Shown: positions 2,574-55,142 of the stretch, one piece after another
How positions within the stretch are numbered: position 1 is the first letter of the stretch
Layout of the letters: each line of letters starts with the position of its first letter
Source of the DNA: an uncultured bacterium
GTDB taxonomy: Bacteria > Patescibacteriota > Minisyncoccia > Phycocordibacterales > UBA11359
Assembly: GCA_903831815.1 (NCBI GenBank)
Contig: CAIKZC010000001.1
Coordinates: forward strand, 85,037-149,036
Length of the DNA: 64,000 nt
Reading direction: 5' to 3'
Position numbers and translations under genes: made by a program
Notes under the pieces: model-generated
Told to the model about the DNA's origin: nothing
What the model saw: only the letters and a program-made list of their open reading frames with translations
Databases searched by the model: none

Positions 2574-2647
2574 CCACCCTTAGCTCAGTTGGTTAGAGCA
2601 TCGAGCTTATACCTCGAGGGTCCTAGGTTCGAGTCCTAGAGGGTGGA
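2574..2647 (+). tRNA. tRNA with anticodon TAT (reads AUA), putatively tRNA-Ile(UAU); no CCA encoded
   Basis: Manual cloverleaf fold. Acceptor CCACCCT/AGGGTGG has 7 perfect pairs. D arm GCTC-AGTTGGTTA-GAGC. Anticodon stem TCGAG/CTCGA with loop CTTATAC. V loop GGGTC. T arm CTAGG-TTCGAGT-CCTAG. Discriminator A. Confidence 0.7.
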
Positions 2648-2651
2648 CAAC

Positions 2652-2688: not shown

Positions 2689-4605
2689 TTATACCTGGCT
2701 CACAAAATCCACTTTCTTTTTTGGGGTAACACCATTGGCAACAAGAATGCTTTCGAATTCGGCACGTTCGATTGTTTCTTTTTCAATCAATCGTTTCGCG
2801 ATCGCATCGAGAAGTTGTCTGTGTTTTTCGATTACACCTTCAGCTTTTTTGTAAGCTTCTTTCATAATGAGCGAAACTTCGGCGTCAATTTCACCGGAAA
2901 CTTTTTCTGAATATTCGCCATCTTCAATACCGGCACCAAACATCGTTCGACCGCCGGCACTTTCAAGTGCAAGAGCACCCAACTTGTCGGACATACCGTA
3001 CTTTGTCACCATATCTCGAGCTAATCCAGTAGAAACTTGAAGATCGTTTGACGGACCAGTCGTCACATCATCAAAAATTATTTTTTCAGTCACGAAACCA
3101 GAAAGAGCGACAGCGATATCATCCAAAAATTCTTTTTTGCTCTGCATTTTGCGATCTTCGAGTGGCAAATGCAAAGTGTAACCGGCTGCGCGTCCTCGTG
3201 AAATGATCGAGACTTTGTGGACAGGATCGGCATACGGCAAAACTGAAGCGACGAGCGCGTGTCCGGCTTCATGGAAAGCAGTTAACTCTTTTTCTCGCAC
3301 GGAAAGCAAATGACTTTTTCTCTCCGGTCCCATCATCACTTTTTCGATGGAACGCACGAGGTCAAATTGCGCAACTTTCAAACGATTTTCGCGAGCGGCC
3401 AAAATCGCCGCTTCGTTCATAAGTGAATAGAGATCGGCGCCGGAAAATCCCGGGGTTCTTTCGGCAATGACCATCAAATTTACATCCTCGGCAAATGGTT
3501 TTTTGCGAGCATGAATTTCCAAAATAGCTTCACGGTCGTGGCGGTCAGGCAGATCGATTGTGACACGTCGGTCAAAACGGCCTGGGCGGAGTAAGGCAGG
3601 ATCGAGCACATCCGGTCGGTTAGTTGCGGCCATAACAATCACTTTTTCGTTCGGCTCAAATCCATCCATCTCAACGAGAATTTGGTTCAAAGTTTGTTCA
3701 CGCTCGTCGTTACCACCACCGACACCGGTGCCGCGCACGCGCCCCACGGCGTCGATCTCGTCCACGAAAATAATCGCGGGCGCGGCGGCTTTAGCCATTT
3801 TAAATAAATCACGCACACGGCTTGCTCCAACACCAACAAACATTTCCACAAATTCCGAACCGGAAATTGAGAAGAAAGAAACACCGGCCTCCCCCGCTAC
3901 CGCACGAGCCAGCAAGGTCTTGCCAGTACCCGGCGCGCCCATCAGTATAATTCCTTTCGGTATCCGCGCGCCTATATCCAAAAACTTTTTCGGATTTTTC
4001 AAAAAGTCCACAATTTCACTCAGCTCTTCCTTAGCTTCCTTCGCTCCGGCAATATCTTTGAAAGTGACTTGCTGTTTCTTGTCGTGAGGCAATGTGATGC
4101 GCGCTTTGGATTGACCAAAAGTAAATGCTTGCATGCCCGCACCTTTAACTTGTCGCGTAATGAACCAAATAAATATGGCAATAAAAACAATCGGAATAAT
4201 AAACGGCGCAAGGTTTATGAGCCAATACATAAAACCGCTTTGGGATTGGATATTGATTTGCACTCCGGCCAATTTATCTTTCGTGACGCCATAATTAACC
4301 AACGACTCAGTCAGAGCTGTGCCAACTTCTTTTTCAGCTTGTTTCTTATCACCGTTAGTATAAACAATATTTAAAGTGTCATCGGTAACGGTAATGCTTG
4401 TAACTTTGCCGGCCGTGACATCACTGGCCAATTGCGAGATCGGAATATTCGGAACTTGATTGGTACTGCCAACAATTGAAGAATAGATAATTATTAAAAT
4501 TATAAAAATAGACAAACTGGTAATAAGGTTACGCCAAAACGACGACTTATTATCTTTTCCCTTCTTTTTGTTGCCTTTATTTTTTTGTTGTGAATTTGGA
4601 TTCAT
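2689..4605 (-). CDS. ftsH: ATP-dependent zinc metalloprotease FtsH
   Basis: 638 aa. N-terminal TM segments, AAA+ Walker A GAPGTGKT, second region of homology, and HEAGHA zinc-binding motif. Confidence 0.9.
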
Positions 4606-4707
4606 ATTATTTATATTATATCACAATGACACATCTCTCTATTAAGACAGACGCCGTAGGAAAAGCAAGTTTCTGACAAAAATATTCCTGACAAATAAAA
4701 ACGTGAA

Positions 4708-5033
4708 GCCCCCGACAAACCATAGGTTTGTCGGGGGCGCTCTGTGTCACTGTCTCAACGGATCGGCCCAGTCACGAACGATACCGCCGTAACCAGACTC
4801 ATCTTGTTCATCTTCATCTGGCCCGGACAACACCCGGGCTTCATGCTGATGAGCTCGAGACTCGTCGGAGGCATCCATCACCTGATCGGACGGATTTTGA
4901 TTTTCCGGTCCCATAGTCATGACTCCATTCTTTGACAAGACCTCTGGCAGAGCTGCCGGGAACATCCCGTAAACAGCTGACTTATCTGGCTACTATTATA
5001 CACCCCCTTGGACTATTTGTCAAGCGTCAAAAA
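4708..5033 (-). ncRNA. Orphan transcription unit: consensus sigma70 promoter, about 260 nt of GC-rich RNA (contains a 72-aa acidic ORF 4747..4965 lacking an SD), and a terminator hairpin
   Basis: Minus-strand TTGACA (5023..5018), 17-nt spacer, TATAAT (5000..4995). Terminator GCCCCCGACAAACC-tat-GGTTTGTCGGGGGC at 4708-4738. The region is far more GC-rich than its surroundings. Confidence 0.4.
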
Positions 5034-5070: not shown

Positions 5071-5517
5071 ATGGCCATATTGTTGGAAAACAAAAAAGCC
5101 CATTTCAACTACGAGATTCTCGAGCGTTTTCAAGCTGGAATTGAAGTTGTGGGACATGAAGTGAAAGCTTTGCGCCATAATCTCGGCTCTCTTGAAGGGG
5201 CCTATATAACGATACGAGGCGGCGAGGCGTATATCATGAATATGTTAATTTCGCCATATCAGGTAAATAACACCGACCCTACCTACGAGCCCCGCCGCAA
5301 TCGCCGCCTCCTCCTCACCAAAAAAGAAATAAAAAAACTTGAAGAAACCGAGCACCAAGCAGGTTTGACAATAGTGCCTATTTCGGTGTATAATAATAAA
5401 CGGTGGATTAAGATGGAAATTGCGATTGTCCGAGGCAAGAAACAATTCGACAAACGCGAGGTCATCAAAAAGCGCGAAACAGATCGCGAAATCCGCCGCG
5501 AATTTAAAGATCGTTGA
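5071..5517 (+). CDS. smpB: SsrA-binding protein SmpB (start 5071 preferred; the longer ORF starts at 5008)
   Basis: MAILLENKKAHFNYEILERFQAGIEVVGHEVKALR... matches the SmpB N-terminus. It lies immediately upstream of the tmRNA. Confidence 0.85.
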   Translation: MAILLENKKAHFNYEILERFQAGIEVVGHEVKALRHNLGSLEGAYITIRGGEAYIMNMLISPYQVNNTDPTYEPRRNRRLLLTKKEIKKLEETEHQAGLTIVPISVYNNKRWIKMEIAIVRGKKQFDKREVIKKRETDREIRREFKDR

Positions 5518-5547: not shown

Positions 5548-5959
5548 GGGGATGATCGGCCTAGACAACTGATTCCCTTCTTGATGTGCGCTATAAGGGT
5601 CCTTGATACCTTCCAATCACCATGGAAATCTAAGTGCTAAAACCTTAGTTGCAAGCGCAAAGTCAACCTTATCTCCATATTTTGGAGCTAAAGACTTCGC
5701 GTTCGCCTACGTTTCTTAACCTAGGCGACGTCTCTCATCCTAATGTTTGGTCAGGATGAAGGGGTGTAATAAATCCAAACTGGAACTTGCGGTTTCTCGG
5801 CGCAAGTTTAAGAACAAGAGGATCGGCGGTGCATGATTTTGTTGGTTTAACCCATGCATTGCCTAAACGCCCACCTACCGGCGGGCACTAAAATCTTCTA
5901 CATAGCGTAGAAACATCAGAAGCATCTTTTGCACGGCGGTTCGATTCCGCCCATCTCCA
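5548..5959 (+). ncRNA. ssrA: Transfer-messenger RNA (tmRNA, ssrA)
   Basis: 5-prime GGGGATG pairs with 3-prime CATCTCC, including the G3-U alanine-identity pair. tRNA-like T arm GGCGG-TTCGATT-CCGCC, discriminator A, no CCA encoded. Length 412 nt, adjacent to smpB. Candidate tag frame ...AKDFAFAYVS ends at TAA 5717-5719 (tentative). Confidence 0.85.
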
Positions 5960-6139
5960 CAGACAAAATAAAAACTGCCCGCTAGGGTGGTTTTTATTTT
6001 GTCTGTAATTGATGATTGCCGGAATCGAAAGCCGGACCGAAGCTGCGATGTGAGCGAAGCGAACCGCAGCGAGGGAGGCGGGGTCGCGCAAAAATTGCGT
6101 AGCAATTTTATGTGTGACCGATGGAGCCTGCCTCCATCA
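5960..6139 (+). repeat. Element A copy 1: AT-rich 15-bp-stem hairpin (5960-6005) plus a 115-nt GC-rich conserved core (6021-6139)
   Basis: About 90% identical to 7345-7517. Several internal hairpins (GCTGCG...CGCAGC; CGCAA-aaa-TTGCG; GATGGAG-n5-CTCCATC). The core begins with GGAATCGAA, part of an inverted copy of the tmRNA T-loop/acceptor. Confidence 0.6.
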
Positions 6140-7204: not shown

Positions 7205-7344
7205 CAAGCTATTCAATTCCTTCTTGTGACTTCTATGATGAAATCTGCCTAAACAAAGTTTTTTAAACCCGAGCTCCACAATCGCCTCCGCCGCTTCAAA
7301 AACCCAAGAATGTAGTTGGTTCCAACTTTGATGCACTGTGTCCA

Positions 7345-7517
7345 CAGACAAATAAAAAACTGCCTCTTAGGTAGTTTTTTATTTGTCTGAAAAAGATGGG
7401 CGGAATCGAAAGCCGGACCGAAGCTGCGATGTGAGCGAAGCGAACCGCAGCGAGGGAGGCGGGGTCGCGCAAAAATTGCGTAGCAATTTTATGCGTGACC
7501 GATGGAGCCCATCTCCA
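7345..7517 (+). repeat. Element A copy 2 (hairpin 7345-7389; GC core 7402-7517)
   Basis: Direct repeat of 5960-6139. 7393-7409 (AGATGGGCGGAATCGAA) is a 17-nt exact reverse complement of the tmRNA 3-prime end (TTCGATTCCGCCCATCT). The copy ends GCCCATCTCCA. Confidence 0.6.
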
Positions 7518-12857: not shown

Positions 12858-12966
12858 GATCACCTCCCAATGTTCATTCTGCTTTATCCGGCAGTTACGG
12901 TTTTAGCACAAGCTAATCTGGGCAATATTATACACTTTATTGGTATTTATGTCAATGTATTTAAAA

Positions 12967-51292: not shown

Positions 51293-51721
51293 ATAATAAT
51301 AATTAATAAGCTAAAGCTTTTTTTGACGTCACTCGGACGGATATGAGAATAAGACTCTCATATCCGTCCTCATTAGTCAAAATAAAAAAGGGCGTTGACC
51401 CTACTAATAAGTACCCGTGATTGTAGCGTAAAAGGTTGAAAGTGTAAAGAAAACGGATCCCCGAATCAATTACCTGCTATAATAATCCCAGATTGGTTAT
51501 ATTGAACGGTTACGGCTTTTCAAGACCTTTTGGACTCATGCATATTGAGAGCGCGGACGGTTACGGCTTTCCACGGAGGATATGCATGGTAGTCAACAAA
51601 AAAGAAAATACTTGGTGCGACGTGTTGGTTGATTTTTGATCACATATAAAATACAGTCCGGTCTCTTCCATTTTTTTTGGACTAGATGGACAGTGGAATA
51701 GATGACACGTCGCACAACACC

Positions 51722-51846
51722 GACTCTAACGGCAACCCGAACGTTTTCAATCTCGAACACAACGATGATGGTTTGTGGCTGAACAACAATTGGGCGAAAC
51801 CCGACAATGAGTGGAATCCGAACAACAAGTTCGCGTTCCGTCTCCG
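51722..51846 (+). repeat. DGR template repeat (TR), 125 nt
   Basis: Aligns with VR 53314-53438 (minus strand) with about 27 mismatches, all at TR adenines, plus one synonymous G/A. Followed by hairpin CCGCGAttttacaagTCGCGG at 51862-51882. Confidence 0.85.
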
Positions 51847-51868
51847 AAACTGTTTTCTTTCCGCGATT

Positions 51869-52216
51869 TTACAAGTCGCGGTTTTTCTTTTCTGGATTTA
51901 CCAGACTTTTCTTCCAACCACCAAGCATTTTGCCAACATCTTCAAGTTTCAGGGCAACATCTTCATATTGTTTGTCAGAAATGAGCTTACCCTCCCACGC
52001 AACCGAAATCAGAAACTTCAAGGTATCCAGAATCAAAATACATTTTGAAATCTTTTCCAATTTCTTTTCTTTTTCTGTAAAATAAGCAATATAAGCCCAA
52101 TCGAGCAAATCAAGAAATTTATTTTCAATTCGAGAGCCAATAGTATAACGAGACCCTTTAGCAATATGAGGAACAATGTTAACCCAAACCAAATACCCCT
52201 CTTTGATTCTATTCAA
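51869..52216 (-). CDS. avd: DGR accessory variability determinant (Avd, four-helix-bundle family)
   Basis: 115 aa. C-terminal ...LKLEDVGKMLGGWKKSL and N-terminal YLVWVNIVPHIAKGSRYTIG match the bAvd/four-helix-bundle family pattern. On the strand opposite to the RT, overlapping the RT ORF 5-prime end. Confidence 0.65.
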   Translation of the reverse strand: MNRIKEGYLVWVNIVPHIAKGSRYTIGSRIENKFLDLLDWAYIAYFTEKEKKLEKISKCILILDTLKFLISVAWEGKLISDKQYEDVALKLEDVGKMLGGWKKSLVNPEKKNRDL

Positions 52217-53285
52217 AATCGAGGCGTTATCGAGAGAGAGAGAGAGAGAGAGTAAACTGCGGTTTGGTCATATCTATGATGATATCATTTCTATTAAAAA
52301 CTTGCTCATAGCATGGCGCGAATTTTTGCGCAACAAACGCGACCGAAAAGATGTCGAAAGATTTTCACTTCATTTAATGGATAACGTGTTAGCGCTTCAC
52401 CGTGAACTTATAAACAAAACTTACCATCACGGACACTATAAAGCTTTCAAAATCAATGATCCAAAACCCCGTGACATTCACAAAGCGAGTGTTCGGGATC
52501 GACTTTTACACCACGCAATTTACCGAATTTTATATCCATATTTTGATCCTAAATTTATTTTTGATTCGTACTCCTGTCGAAATGTTAAAGGCACGCATCG
52601 TGCCGTAAATCGTTTTCGTAAATATGCTCGCAAAGTTTCAAAAAACCACACCCGAACTGTTTGGATTTTAAAATGTGATATCAGAAAATTTTTTGCCAAT
52701 ATTGATCACAAAATTTTACTAGATATTTTAAAACGACGCATGAGTAATAAAGACACTGTTTGGTTACTAAATGAAGTTATTAAAAGTTTTAACACTAAAA
52801 ATAAATCGGATGTTGGTTTGCCGCTAGGCAATCTTACCAGCCAACTTCTTGTGAATATATACATGAATGAATTTGATCATTTTATCAAACGAAATTTGAA
52901 AATTGCTTATTATGCCAGATATGCAGATGATTTTATTGTTTTGCACGAAAACAAAGAATATCTCAAGGGTATTCTGCCAACAATATCAGAATTTCTAGAA
53001 ACACACCTAAAATTATCACTCCATCCAAACAAAGTTTCCATAAAAACAATTTCTTCTGGAGTCGATTTTTTAGGCTGGGTCAGTTTTCCACACCACAGAG
53101 TTTTACGCAACTCTACAAAAAAGAGGATGTTCAGAAACTTAAATCGAGATCCGAAAAAAGAATCTTTGGCCTCTTATCAAGGACTCTTAAGTCGCGGCGA
53201 TACACATAAATTGAAACAAATGATATCAGAAAAATATTTCGAAAAGAATCAAAGAAACCAAGAGCCAAAGGTTCAGAAAAATTAA
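52176..53285 (+). CDS. DGR reverse transcriptase; true start uncertain (may lie downstream of the (GA)10 tract)
   Basis: RT motifs: LKCDIRKFFANIDHKIL (motif 2), GLPLGNLTSQLLVNIYMNEFD (motif 4/B), YARYADDFIV (YxDD catalytic), LHPNK...GWV. Confidence 0.85.
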   Translation: MLTQTKYPSLILFKIEALSRERERESKLRFGHIYDDIISIKNLLIAWREFLRNKRDRKDVERFSLHLMDNVLALHRELINKTYHHGHYKAFKINDPKPRDIHKASVRDRLLHHAIYRILYPYFDPKFIFDSYSCRNVKGTHRAVNRFRKYARKVSKNHTRTVWILKCDIRKFFANIDHKILLDILKRRMSNKDTVWLLNEVIKSFNTKNKSDVGLPLGNLTSQLLVNIYMNEFDHFIKRNLKIAYYARYADDFIVLHENKEYLKGILPTISEFLETHLKLSLHPNKVSIKTISSGVDFLGWVSFPHHRVLRNSTKKRMFRNLNRDPKKESLASYQGLLSRGDTHKLKQMISEKYFEKNQRNQEPKVQKN

Positions 53286-53297
53286 GAGTAAAAGACT

Positions 53298-55142
53298 CTA
53301 AGTTTTAGACTTGCGGAGACGGAACGCGAACTCGTAGCCCGGATCCCACCCAAAGCCGGGCATCGCCCAAGCGCTGTACAGCCATAAACCAACACCGCGG
53401 CGTTCGAGATTGAAAACGCACGGGCTGCCGTCAGAGTCGGAGATTTGTTTCATACCAACAACAAACCAGTCACCTAAAGGCTGATTTTTATATTGCAGAC
53501 GATAATTAGGTCCTGTATCGGCGGGACACAATTCCAACCCAAGGGCTTGTGCTCGTTCATAAATTTGATCAGTTGTGGCGTTTGTTTTGAAACCAAGATC
53601 AGCAACCGTTAAACGAATCAGTGTGGCAGTTTCAATATTTTTGCCAGTCACAAATTCACGACTTTTGAGCATAAATTCGACATTATCAGAAATTTTTATG
53701 CCATCTTTTTTCAATTCACTTAATAAGTGTTCACCAGTTTTGCCTCCTATCTCAACACTTTCTCGGCTAATTTTCTTTTCCGGAAAGGAAGTGTAAACGT
53801 GTTCAAGATTGTCTGGTAGTTTTTGGAAAATACCGGGTTCGAGTTGTCCGACATATACCTTGGTGTTTTCATTTATTTGACTTGGAACGTGTGCAATCTG
53901 TTCTTTTGTGCACTCAAAGATAACCAACACGTCTTCTTCAACATTTCTATTGGTTCGTAATTCGACAATACGTGGGTCACGTTCGTAACCAAAACCTTCA
54001 ATCGGTGTGTTAATTTCGTAGAGAAAAATCAAATCATCTTTGGTAAAGGCTTCGCCTTTTTCGTGTTTTTGATCCAAAGCAGTAAGCTTTTTCATGTCCT
54101 CACTTTTTTTGCGATACGCATCGGCTTCCGTGCCAAATTCTGCAAGCTTAGTATCCAATACCTCCTGAAAAATTGGTTCAACATCTTGATGGGGTAGAAG
54201 CCCGCGGATTTGACCGATTTGGTTGCCAGTCATTTGGATTGCGAGGCGTGGCTGAGTGGGATTGCCGTCATTGTCGTAAGTATAATAAACATAAAAATCT
54301 CCTTGCTTGTTGTAGCTGTGCGCAGTTGCCTTGCCTTCAATACACCAACCAGCTCCACCTGTCTTCCCTTCCACAGATTGCCATAGTCTATCAGCATCAT
54401 TAGAATTGTTAGCTTCATATTTTATCCACGTTCCTTGTATTTCTTCCTTATTTTCGATTTTGGAAGCCAGAGAGCCGGCAATAAAATCGGCATATAGAGC
54501 TGGAAATTTCTTGGAAAAATTTTCTCGTATTTCCAGGTCTTTCAGATTTTTGTTGTCATTTTTAACTTTTTCGTAAATATCAAGTATTTTTGCCAACGCA
54601 GCTCGGTTGATATCAGGGAAACGACCCACGGTTGATTCGGTACGAGACTTGAACTTACCTAGTTCTTTGTCGAATTGCGAAAGCTTAATTACCTGATTCC
54701 AAACGTAGTATTTAAACCAAGCAGGGTAAGCAACGTCTTCTTTAGTGAGATAATCCATCCATGTATCGAGAGAGTGCTTCTGATCTTCAATTGCTACATC
54801 CATCATCTGCTCGCGCACGTTTTCAGGAATTACTTCTACAGGTTGCCCACGTTCTCGTGCGATACGTTGCTGAAGTTCAAAATAGCTTTCGGGGAAATTA
54901 TCACGCTTGATTAGCAACGCGTCATATATTTTGTCGCGAAACATTTCAATGTTACGTTCACGTTTTTCTGTATCCGGATTGAGAAAAATATTTTCCAGTC
55001 TATCCATATATGCTTCTATTCTTGCGGTTGGATCATTAGGAACACTTTCACCGGTTCGTTGTTCCTGACGTTCTACTGCACGTTGCACCTCAGGTGAGGT
55101 TTGCAATTCTGGGTTTTTGATATGAAGCGGAAATTTTTCCAT
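53298..55142 (-). CDS. DGR target protein (614 aa) with the variable repeat in its C-terminal 40 aa
   Basis: C-terminus ...SPCVFNLERRGVGLWLYSAWAMPGFGWDPGYEFAFRLRKS is the diversified counterpart of TR-encoded ...NVFNLEHNDDGLWLNNNWAKPDNEWNPNNKFAFRLRN (Asn AAC codons in TR). VR 53314-53438. Confidence 0.8.
   Translation of the reverse strand: MEKFPLHIKNPELQTSPEVQRAVERQEQRTGESVPNDPTARIEAYMDRLENIFLNPDTEKRERNIEMFRDKIYDALLIKRDNFPESYFELQQRIARERGQPVEVIPENVREQMMDVAIEDQKHSLDTWMDYLTKEDVAYPAWFKYYVWNQVIKLSQFDKELGKFKSRTESTVGRFPDINRAALAKILDIYEKVKNDNKNLKDLEIRENFSKKFPALYADFIAGSLASKIENKEEIQGTWIKYEANNSNDADRLWQSVEGKTGGAGWCIEGKATAHSYNKQGDFYVYYTYDNDGNPTQPRLAIQMTGNQIGQIRGLLPHQDVEPIFQEVLDTKLAEFGTEADAYRKKSEDMKKLTALDQKHEKGEAFTKDDLIFLYEINTPIEGFGYERDPRIVELRTNRNVEEDVLVIFECTKEQIAHVPSQINENTKVYVGQLEPGIFQKLPDNLEHVYTSFPEKKISRESVEIGGKTGEHLLSELKKDGIKISDNVEFMLKSREFVTGKNIETATLIRLTVADLGFKTNATTDQIYERAQALGLELCPADTGPNYRLQYKNQPLGDWFVVGMKQISDSDGSPCVFNLERRGVGLWLYSAWAMPGFGWDPGYEFAFRLRKSKT

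Follow-up and report, generated by a model that had tools for sequence, protein, structure and literature searches.

What fills the gap between ftsH and smpB in an uncultured bacterium of the Patescibacteriota is the question addressed here. The window, by which we mean the whole stretch of DNA that was analysed (64,000 nucleotides of contig CAIKZC010000001.1), carries ftsH at 2689..4605 on the minus strand and smpB at 5071..5517 on the plus strand. A first-pass annotation had rightly placed between these two genes an element with a consensus promoter, and had proposed that it encodes either an acidic peptide of 72 residues or a structured small RNA (sRNA). We favour, and consider moderately probable, the reading that this element, called the cassette below, is a gene for a small, lineage-specific protein and occupies a slot between smpB and ftsH that is conserved and strongly expressed. 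The peptide is thus preferred to the sRNA, on the strength of codon statistics and a Shine-Dalgarno (SD) motif, with the amendment that the product is more likely 55 than 72 residues long and that its mRNA is not leaderless. The parts of the cassette, including its open reading frame (ORF), are as follows.

5018..5023, minus strand: −35 hexamer TTGACA, exact consensus; TTGACAA is invariant in the window and in the related loci L169, L175, L179, L180 and L171
4995..5000, minus strand: −10 hexamer TATAAT, inside the conserved block GGTGTATAATA, at a 17-nt spacer from the −35 hexamer
4987..4988, minus strand: predicted transcription start, placed by the spacing rule 7-8 nt past the −10 hexamer
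4951..4978, minus strand: two-tier leader stem-loop AGCUG-UUUA-CGGGA-UGU-UCCCG-G-CAGCU, from RNAalifold on five lineages
4915..4965, minus strand: possible 17-codon N-terminal extension (the 72-residue version), translation considered unlikely
4923..4926, minus strand: SD-like GGAG, 8 nt upstream of ATG 4914
4747..4914, minus strand: 55-residue ORF MGPENQNPSDQVMDASDESRAHQHEARVLSGPDEDEQDESGYGGIVRDWADPLRQ, from ATG 4914 to stop TGA 4749..4747
4708..4738, minus strand: terminator hairpin GCCCCCGACAAACC-UAU-GGUUUGUCGGGGGC, a perfect 14-bp stem with a 3-nt loop, 8 nt past the stop codon
4693..4707, minus strand: interrupted U-rich tail TTCACGTTTTTATTT
4650..4692, minus strand: partly conserved block (GTCAGGAATATTTTTGTCAGAAACTTGCTTTTCCTACGGCGTCTG) 3' of the terminator, from alignment with L179 and L180

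The reading frame between leader and terminator

The codon content of the ORF was compared with that of real genes and of off-frame sequence in the same genome. Its in-frame codon log-odds (base-composition null) is 0.081, which places it at the 37th percentile of real genes. Windows of 55 codons from this genome score 0.11 (sd 0.12) when taken from real genes and −0.37 (sd 0.17) when taken off-frame, and no off-frame window reaches 0.081. The score was not reached by any of 2000 dinucleotide-preserving shuffles in any of six frames. When the sequence was scanned in sliding windows, the ORF frame was the best in 13 of 14, and it was still the best after an acidic DEDEQDE run had been removed. 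Synonymous codon choice is host-like as well, being at the 38th percentile among real genes and departing from uniform choice with P=0.0055.

The GC content had been described as far above background. The ORF does have 55% GC against 42% for the window, but the core of ftsH reaches 50-57%, hence the value is within the coding range. GC at codon positions 1/2/3 of the ORF is 0.73/0.42/0.51 (GC1 > GC3 > GC2); therefore, the high GC comes mainly from Asp, Glu, Gly, Ala, Val and Pro codons, for the most part starting with G, and the excess sits at codon position 1.

The very acidic 72-residue ORF (4965..4747, minus strand; pI 4.2, net charge −10) exists as described, but the accompanying statements that it is the only ORF and that it has no SD sequence do not hold. 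The plus strand also has ORFs of 62 and 63 residues across the same GC-rich stretch, and the GGAG at 4926..4923 precedes ATG 4914 on the minus strand, which gives the 55-residue product. The earlier start, ATG 4965, lacks an SD and falls within the loop of the conserved leader hairpin, and public gene callers picked ATG 4914 (55-residue product, P0001); in favour of the 17-codon extension is its in-frame codon score of 0.10. Lack of an SD would be no argument against translation here, because an SD-like motif precedes just 7 of the 50 long ORFs of the window. The genome thus appears to rely little on SD-led initiation, and both ftsH and smpB look leaderless or nearly so.

The 55-residue peptide has a pI of 4.1 and a net charge of −10, contains no Lys, Phe, Thr or Cys, includes the segments VLSGPDEDEQDESGYGGIVR and AHQHEAR besides the DEDEQDE run, and ends in ...DPLRQ. 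AlphaFold2, run on the single sequence, gave no secondary structure (pLDDT 61), which fits disorder but does not prove it.

Promoter, leader and terminator are shared with relatives

The exact TTGACA-N17-TATAAT that had been reported on the minus strand was found at 5023..4995. Its hexamers match the sigma-70 consensus at 12 of 12 positions, and the motif is indeed rare, with two copies in the 64-kb window against 0.02 expected. Relatives were examined through SmpB homologues at 76-85% identity and the contigs around them. The cassette promoter directly adjoins smpB in L169/L170, L175, L179, L180 and L171, and across these lineages its consensus is GCTTGACAAAT-N-GGTGTATAATA-N5-CAGAT, in which L171 has TGGAAT as its −10 hexamer. 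GGTGTATAAT is invariant in five lineages, namely the window, L169, L175, L179 and L180, and the conserved CAGAT lies 3' of the predicted start. The extended −10 block of the cassette is also present at the promoter of the transfer-messenger RNA (tmRNA) gene and at a promoter at 12.9 kb in the window.

Downstream of the promoter, RNAalifold on five lineages recovered 13 pairs in the leader stem-loop, three of which are changed on both sides. The stem-loop lies ~10-45 nt into the transcript in the window, L169, L175, L179 and L180, but not in L171. Its inner stem reads CGGGA/UCCCG in the window, UAGGGAC/GUUCCUA in L169, CGGAG/UUCCG in L179, UAGGAACC/GGUUUCUA in L175 and CAGAGACC/GGUUUCUG in L180. 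In the leader alignment, 89% of the cells are paired, against 28-54% in slid-partner controls, and the covariation score was matched by 16 of 500 shuffles, which with five sequences only is supportive rather than conclusive. The five members score 71-95 bits with a covariance model built from promoter and leader (R1), which elsewhere detects solely other strong promoters, namely the probable tmRNA promoter inside smpB and the one at 12955..12927. The leader is probably an mRNA-stabilising or regulatory element. Because the same 5' end precedes genes for 230-residue proteins in sister lineages, we infer that it acts as the 5' untranslated region (UTR) of an mRNA.

At the other end, the perfect 14-bp stem of the terminator is present as had been described, although its strength has to be qualified by an interrupted U-tract: a consensus terminator scan skipped the hairpin (4738..4708) because the tail UUCACGUUUUUAUUU breaks the T-run that the scan looks for. 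The tail in relatives reads GGGGGUUUUC. The CCCCC...GGGGG clamp of the terminator is kept in the window, L179, L180 and L175, and the inner stem occurs in compensatory variants (GACAAACC/GGTTTGTC, GGCAGTCC/GGATTGCT, GGCAAT/ATTGCC and AGAAAT/ATTTCT). The region 3' of the terminator holds the block GTCAGGAATATTTTTGTCAGAAACTTGCTTTTCCTACGGCGTCTG, partly common to relatives, whose counterpart in L179 and L180 makes a second small hairpin.

The first-pass annotation had suggested comparing the conservation of the frame with that of the RNA structure. Pairing in the leader and the terminator is conserved in relatives, and the peptide and the RNA body between them have no counterpart there. Since promoter, leader and terminator are conserved, the comparison of sequences argues that the cassette is a real, selected transcription unit.

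Different genes occupy the same slot

Loci anchored on SmpB assign the window to the Patescibacteria, close to Candidatus Taylorbacteria in the Paceibacteria, and the lineages that share the cassette are a genus-level group of Paceibacteria. The divergent ftsH-smpB pair is conserved in ~37 Paceibacteria loci, with a gap of mostly 50-110 nt. The gap measures 50 nt in L087 and 73 nt in L001 (both at 81% SmpB identity) against ~465 nt in the window, so that the element might initially be taken for an insertion of ~390 nt. This impression was revised when the promoter turned up in other lineages and proved not to be unique to the window genome. Between the shared ends, the cargo differs, and in L175 it is the target gene of a diversity-generating retroelement (DGR):

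Window: acidic peptide of 55 residues
L180: acidic protein of 88 residues, pI 4.1
L179: protein of 113 residues, pI ~9
L171: protein of 73 residues with a transmembrane segment and a Cys-rich region
L175: protein of 232 residues, a true DGR target with bAvd and reverse transcriptase genes alongside
L169: homologue of the L175 protein (42% identity), whose ORF exits the contig at 222 residues

The variable repeat (VR) of L175 is 86% identical to its template repeat (TR) over 129 nt, and all 18 mismatches are at TR adenines. The DNA between the cassette flanks is not alignable among lineages, and the window cassette has no residual similarity to the L175 and L169 proteins or genes. When the small cargo proteins are compared in pairs, they are no more similar than shuffles (z ~0 for the window paired with L180 or L179). 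All cargo ORFs of the relatives have AGGA or GGAG 5-9 nt 5' of the ATG, cargo GC exceeds locus GC by 10-13 points in the window, L179 and L180, and the 88-residue ORF of L180 passes the codon test. Since the conserved leader would be the 5' UTR of an mRNA, and given the codon signal and the SD, the cargo of the window is best read as a protein-coding mini-gene.

Eight relatives lack the cassette (L001, L087, L167, L172, L174, L176, L177 and L178) and have a different ftsH promoter, TTGCGATTTTGGCTATAAT. In a rough SmpB tree, weak at 148 residues, cassette-bearing lineages are interspersed among cassette-less ones, which suggests several losses, gains or exchanges of the cassette. In more distant Paceibacteria (L002, L005, L006, L008, L009, L015, L020 and L026), the gap holds unrelated lineage-specific ORFs of 76-385 residues, among them small proteins with a transmembrane segment and a zinc-ribbon-like part. 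The ftsH-smpB gap would therefore be a hot spot of novel genes quite generally. Unrelated as they are, the cargos have been retained as ORFs, and one of the slots is taken by a wholly different gene of 232 residues; for this reason cargo replacement or new gene birth is favoured over divergence in situ, a preference that we regard as unproven.

Searches for homologues

The peptide has no homologue among ~15 billion proteins. It matched itself alone both in a word-indexed search of 5.8 billion clusters and in a full HMMER scan of 1.84 billion representatives, and Pfam, PHROGs, NCBIfam, PADLOC and PDB sequences gave no match to it. The tblastn search that the first-pass annotation had recommended found nothing resembling the element, nor did blastn or nhmmer, at 160 SmpB-anchored loci from GTDB genomes and JGI metagenomes. 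Nothing meaningful was returned by blastn against phage and plasmid records, viral contigs gave nothing by either the peptide or the promoter pattern, and self-comparison inside the window revealed no paralogue of the element. At the cassette, no recombinase, integrase or repeat signature was found, and the search for terminal repeats or target-site duplications yielded only short matches at chance level, such as the 9-bp inverted repeat TGACAAATA (5022, 4689).

In public data, the gene is present on 11 contigs from at least nine independent assemblies, always between smpB and ftsH, and across the cassette region the six contigs whose DNA was fetched agree at all 501 nt.

Several known kinds of small gene were considered as candidates and rejected. 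Pup and UBact tags are expected to end in Gly-Gly-Gln/Glu; this peptide ends in DPLRQ, and Pfam and NCBIfam gave no match to such tags at E up to 1-10 (the ligase genes were not searched for). An ArfA-like rescue factor would coincide in length (72 or 55 residues) and in its place next to smpB, but ArfA works via a basic tail and the peptide is strongly acidic. A double-glycine leader peptide was considered on account of the GG at residues 43-44, and the hydrophobic consensus positions were not matched. An anti-phage defence or phage protein has no support from PADLOC, PHROG or the phage and plasmid records, all of which were without a match. A target of the window's own DGR was dismissed as well, because the only match of the TR at 51720..51849 is the VR at 53311..53440, and the element has no VR.

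Alternative explanations of the cassette

A number of observations weigh against a small protein gene. With no homologue of the peptide anywhere, protein conservation cannot be demonstrated, and the peptide matches no family or structure. Variation within the population is zero, hence neither a test for selection (pN/pS) nor one for covariation can be made. The length of the ORF alone means little because the opposite strand is also open for ~60 codons. The cargo ORFs of L179 and L171 fail the codon test, when scored with the codon table of the window. The RNA before the terminator (z −2.79) is more stable than most coding windows, two of 38 windows of the same length being as low, and conserved 5' and 3' ends around a variable middle are also found in some sRNA families.

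One alternative is that the cassette is a decaying remnant, in which a larger gene such as a DGR target was deleted and a transcribed, in-frame leftover without function stayed behind. The same flanks do hold a DGR target in two sister lineages, eight relatives manage without the cassette, the cargo has no homologue, and a codon signature would be expected to survive in the leftover of a real coding sequence. Nevertheless, nothing in the cassette still resembles the L175 or L169 proteins or genes, the SD and ATG are well spaced, and 84% of the stretch from leader to terminator is taken up by the intact ORF. At least nine assemblies moreover have the identical sequence, and an exact promoter consensus is not what a dead locus would be expected to retain. 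We therefore regard a remnant as unlikely.

The cassette could also be a non-coding sRNA, in which case the ~280-nt transcript would work at the RNA level and the ORF would simply result from the high GC of the sequence. Both promoter and terminator are strong, the ends are conserved around a variable middle, the peptide is an orphan, and the transcript folds with a z-score of −4.9 in full and −2.8 once the terminator is taken off, with a stability equalled by none of 200 shuffles. The terminator, however, supplies most of this folding signal; the ORF alone has a z-score of −1.5 and the 5' UTR of −0.1, and, as noted, two of 38 ordinary coding windows fold equally well. At gathering thresholds, an Rfam scan of the window returned only tmRNA and tRNA; with E up to 10, a search of the region gave matches at chance level and no family, the best of them at 19.5 bits against a threshold of 216 and covering the terminator only. 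The RNA body between leader and terminator could be aligned with no relative examined, and, being unique to this lineage, it would have no conserved structure through which to act. The strong in-frame codon signal, the SD and ATG, and the use of the same leader as 5' UTR of 230-residue protein genes in L169 and L175 also stand against an sRNA, which we judge quite improbable. Among known RNAs, 6S RNA, SRP RNA and other housekeeping RNAs were rejected, since Rfam gave no signal and the closest relatives lack the element.

A third possibility is a leader-peptide attenuator of ftsH, whose small ORF, when translated, would modulate the terminator hairpin and thereby read-through into ftsH. The stop codon at 4749..4747 is only 8 nt from the foot of the hairpin, ftsH follows directly on the same strand, and cassette and terminator recur upstream of ftsH in L179, L180 and L171. 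All lineages, though, keep an extended −10 promoter of ftsH itself, an alternative antiterminator pairing is not evident, and the distance from stop codon to hairpin varies (~14 nt in L180, ~30 nt in L179). In L175 the terminator follows the 232-residue gene and is succeeded by the DGR rather than by ftsH, and eight relatives lack the cassette altogether, so that we hold attenuation to be very unlikely.

Finally, a type I toxin-antitoxin pair, with the plus-strand 63-residue ORF at 4744..4935 as toxin and the minus-strand RNA as antisense antitoxin, is scarcely credible: the antisense ORF is open and moderately hydrophobic and the strongly promoted minus-strand RNA is fully complementary to it, but GAN-rich sense codons automatically produce hydrophobic antisense frames, no antisense frame scores above −0.14 for codon usage (sense frame 0.08), no clean transmembrane helix and no credible plus-strand promoter are present, and the antisense ORF has neither a homologue nor a gene call in the protein collection and matches nothing in PADLOC or Pfam.

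Proposed expression and comparison with known systems

For a small protein gene, expression of the cassette would proceed as follows. A consensus sigma-70-type promoter would start a transcript at ~4988, the conserved stem-loop (4978..4951) would form next, and GGAG 4926..4923 with ATG 4914 would direct synthesis of the 55-residue peptide, which is lysine-free, carries a net charge of −10 and is probably disordered. The 14-bp hairpin with its GC clamp would then stop the transcript before the promoter of ftsH. The cargo appears specific to this species-level lineage, and sister lineages would express unrelated cargo under the shared promoter, leader and terminator.

As to what the peptide does, its composition raises the speculative and rather unlikely idea of a soluble polyanion whose role would be to bind or titrate some basic partner. 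A broader proposal, which we offer as tentative and doubtful, is that promoter, leader and terminator form a conserved, constitutively strong slot in which the cargo is swapped or newly born among closely related Patescibacteria, being a DGR-hypermutated protein in some lineages and an unrelated GC-rich mini-protein in others. The slot would be dedicated to fast-evolving, highly expressed factors for the interactions or conflicts of an episymbiont, and the shared hairpin, located past the VR in L175, may be the feature that brings new cargo in.

The cassette resembles several known systems in part. T7 Gp5.9 and Gp2 are small acidic phage inhibitors, and with these and other orphan small proteins it shares a length of ~50-60 residues, strong acidity, a stand-alone gene equipped with a strong promoter and terminator of its own, and the lack of detectable homologues. 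Unlike the phage inhibitors, it lies in a chromosomal housekeeping context, has no sequence or profile similarity to them, and has no predicted fold. Replacement islands likewise have conserved flanks, here smpB, ftsH, promoter-leader and terminator, around a gene that is unrelated or absent; in the cassette, however, the conserved flanks include the expression signals, and the ready-made slot is only 0.3-0.9 kb long. Trans-acting sRNAs such as OmrA and OmrB are similarly conserved at the promoter-proximal end and the terminator and variable in the middle. The middle of the cassette, in contrast, carries an SD, an ATG and an ORF with host-like codons, and its 5' end precedes long protein genes in relatives.

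DGR target genes have GC-rich hairpins 4-34 bp past the VR, with stems of 7-10 bp and a GRNA tetraloop (Guo et al. 2011, PMC3240598). In L175, a true variable gene is flanked by the same promoter-leader and by a hairpin homologous to the CCCCC...GGGGG hairpin of the cassette. The window element differs from such targets in that it has no VR and that the stem of its hairpin is 14 bp long and the loop 3 nt.

Neighbouring genes and other features of the window

The cassette is bounded by the following features.

4605..2689, minus strand: ftsH, with Pfam M41 and AAA domains
4615..4623, minus strand: extended −10 promoter TGaTATAAT of ftsH itself, 9 nt ahead of ATG 4605, with which ftsH looks near-leaderless; downstream limit of the cassette by comparison with L087 and L001
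5056..5064, plus strand: extended −10 promoter TGcTATGAT of smpB, 6 nt before ATG 5071, with which smpB looks leaderless; upstream limit of the cassette
5071..5517, plus strand: smpB, flanking the upstream end of the cassette
5548..5962, plus strand: tmRNA gene, 3' of smpB, found by an Rfam match of 79 bits

The block around the extended −10 of smpB is kept across all relatives, whether the cassette is present or not. Rfam detects the tmRNA and ARAGORN misses it. In a strain variant (L085), all 19 mismatches over 1271 nt are within 5569..5744 of the tmRNA, and smpB and the cassette have none. The products of ftsH, smpB and the tmRNA gene all belong to protein quality control; this neighbourhood is probably not meaningful for the cassette, because unrelated ORFs fill the same gap in more distant relatives.

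Two further promoters of the window share sequence with that of the cassette. An exact TTGACA-N18-TATAAT with the GGTGTATAAT block lies inside smpB at 5365..5394 (plus strand), ~150 nt 5' of the tmRNA gene. As the covariance model finds an equivalent site inside smpB of many relatives, it is probably a conserved tmRNA promoter embedded in the smpB coding sequence. The second exact TTGACA-N17-TATAAT, at 12955..12927 (minus strand), shares GTGTATAATA-N5-CAGAT with the cassette promoter; in the region to ~12500, it is followed by a small membrane-protein ORF (MNKENRIWVWLLGV..., SD GGAGGTGA) and then by a short hydrophobic ORF.

A direct repeat of ~180 nt starts at the 3' end of the tmRNA (5956..6124 versus 7341..7505). 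Each copy has a terminator-like hairpin followed by a GC-rich segment of ~110 nt (6018..6135 and 7400..7515), nearly identical in the two copies, and the 1.4 kb between them holds a 329-residue ORF with no Pfam match. The GC-rich segment has a plus-strand folding z-score of −4.7, equalled by none of 200 shuffles, and no Rfam match; it is a better candidate for a structured RNA or a repeat element than the cassette is.

The window also contains a complete DGR at 51686..55142. Its TR is at ~51720..51849, bAvd at 52216..51869 (51869..52216, minus strand; Pfam PF22296), the reverse transcriptase gene at 52176..53285 (plus strand; RVT_1), and a target gene for 614 residues at 53298..55142 (minus strand) with the VR at 53311..53440. 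Over 130 nt, TR and VR share 80% identity, and the mismatches between them are at TR adenines. A tRNA-Ile gene at 2574..2648 (plus strand) has the anticodon UAU, which is unusual for bacteria; AUA is normally read in bacteria by a CAU tRNA modified with lysidine.

Implications

Taken alone, the cassette is one more orphan small gene in a reduced genome and matters little. It is a clean example of what appears to be the strongest promoter type of the lineage, TTGACAA-N13-GGTGTATAAT, which it has in common with the tmRNA gene, and this promoter type and the leader hairpin may aid the annotation of expression signals in Patescibacteria, where most genes have no SD and many look leaderless. Since sister lineages carry unrelated cargo, a DGR target among it, between the same signals, the smpB-ftsH gap may serve these episymbionts as a testing ground for new small proteins made at high levels, and the slot would then offer a tractable entry to gene birth or gene exchange in the candidate phyla radiation.

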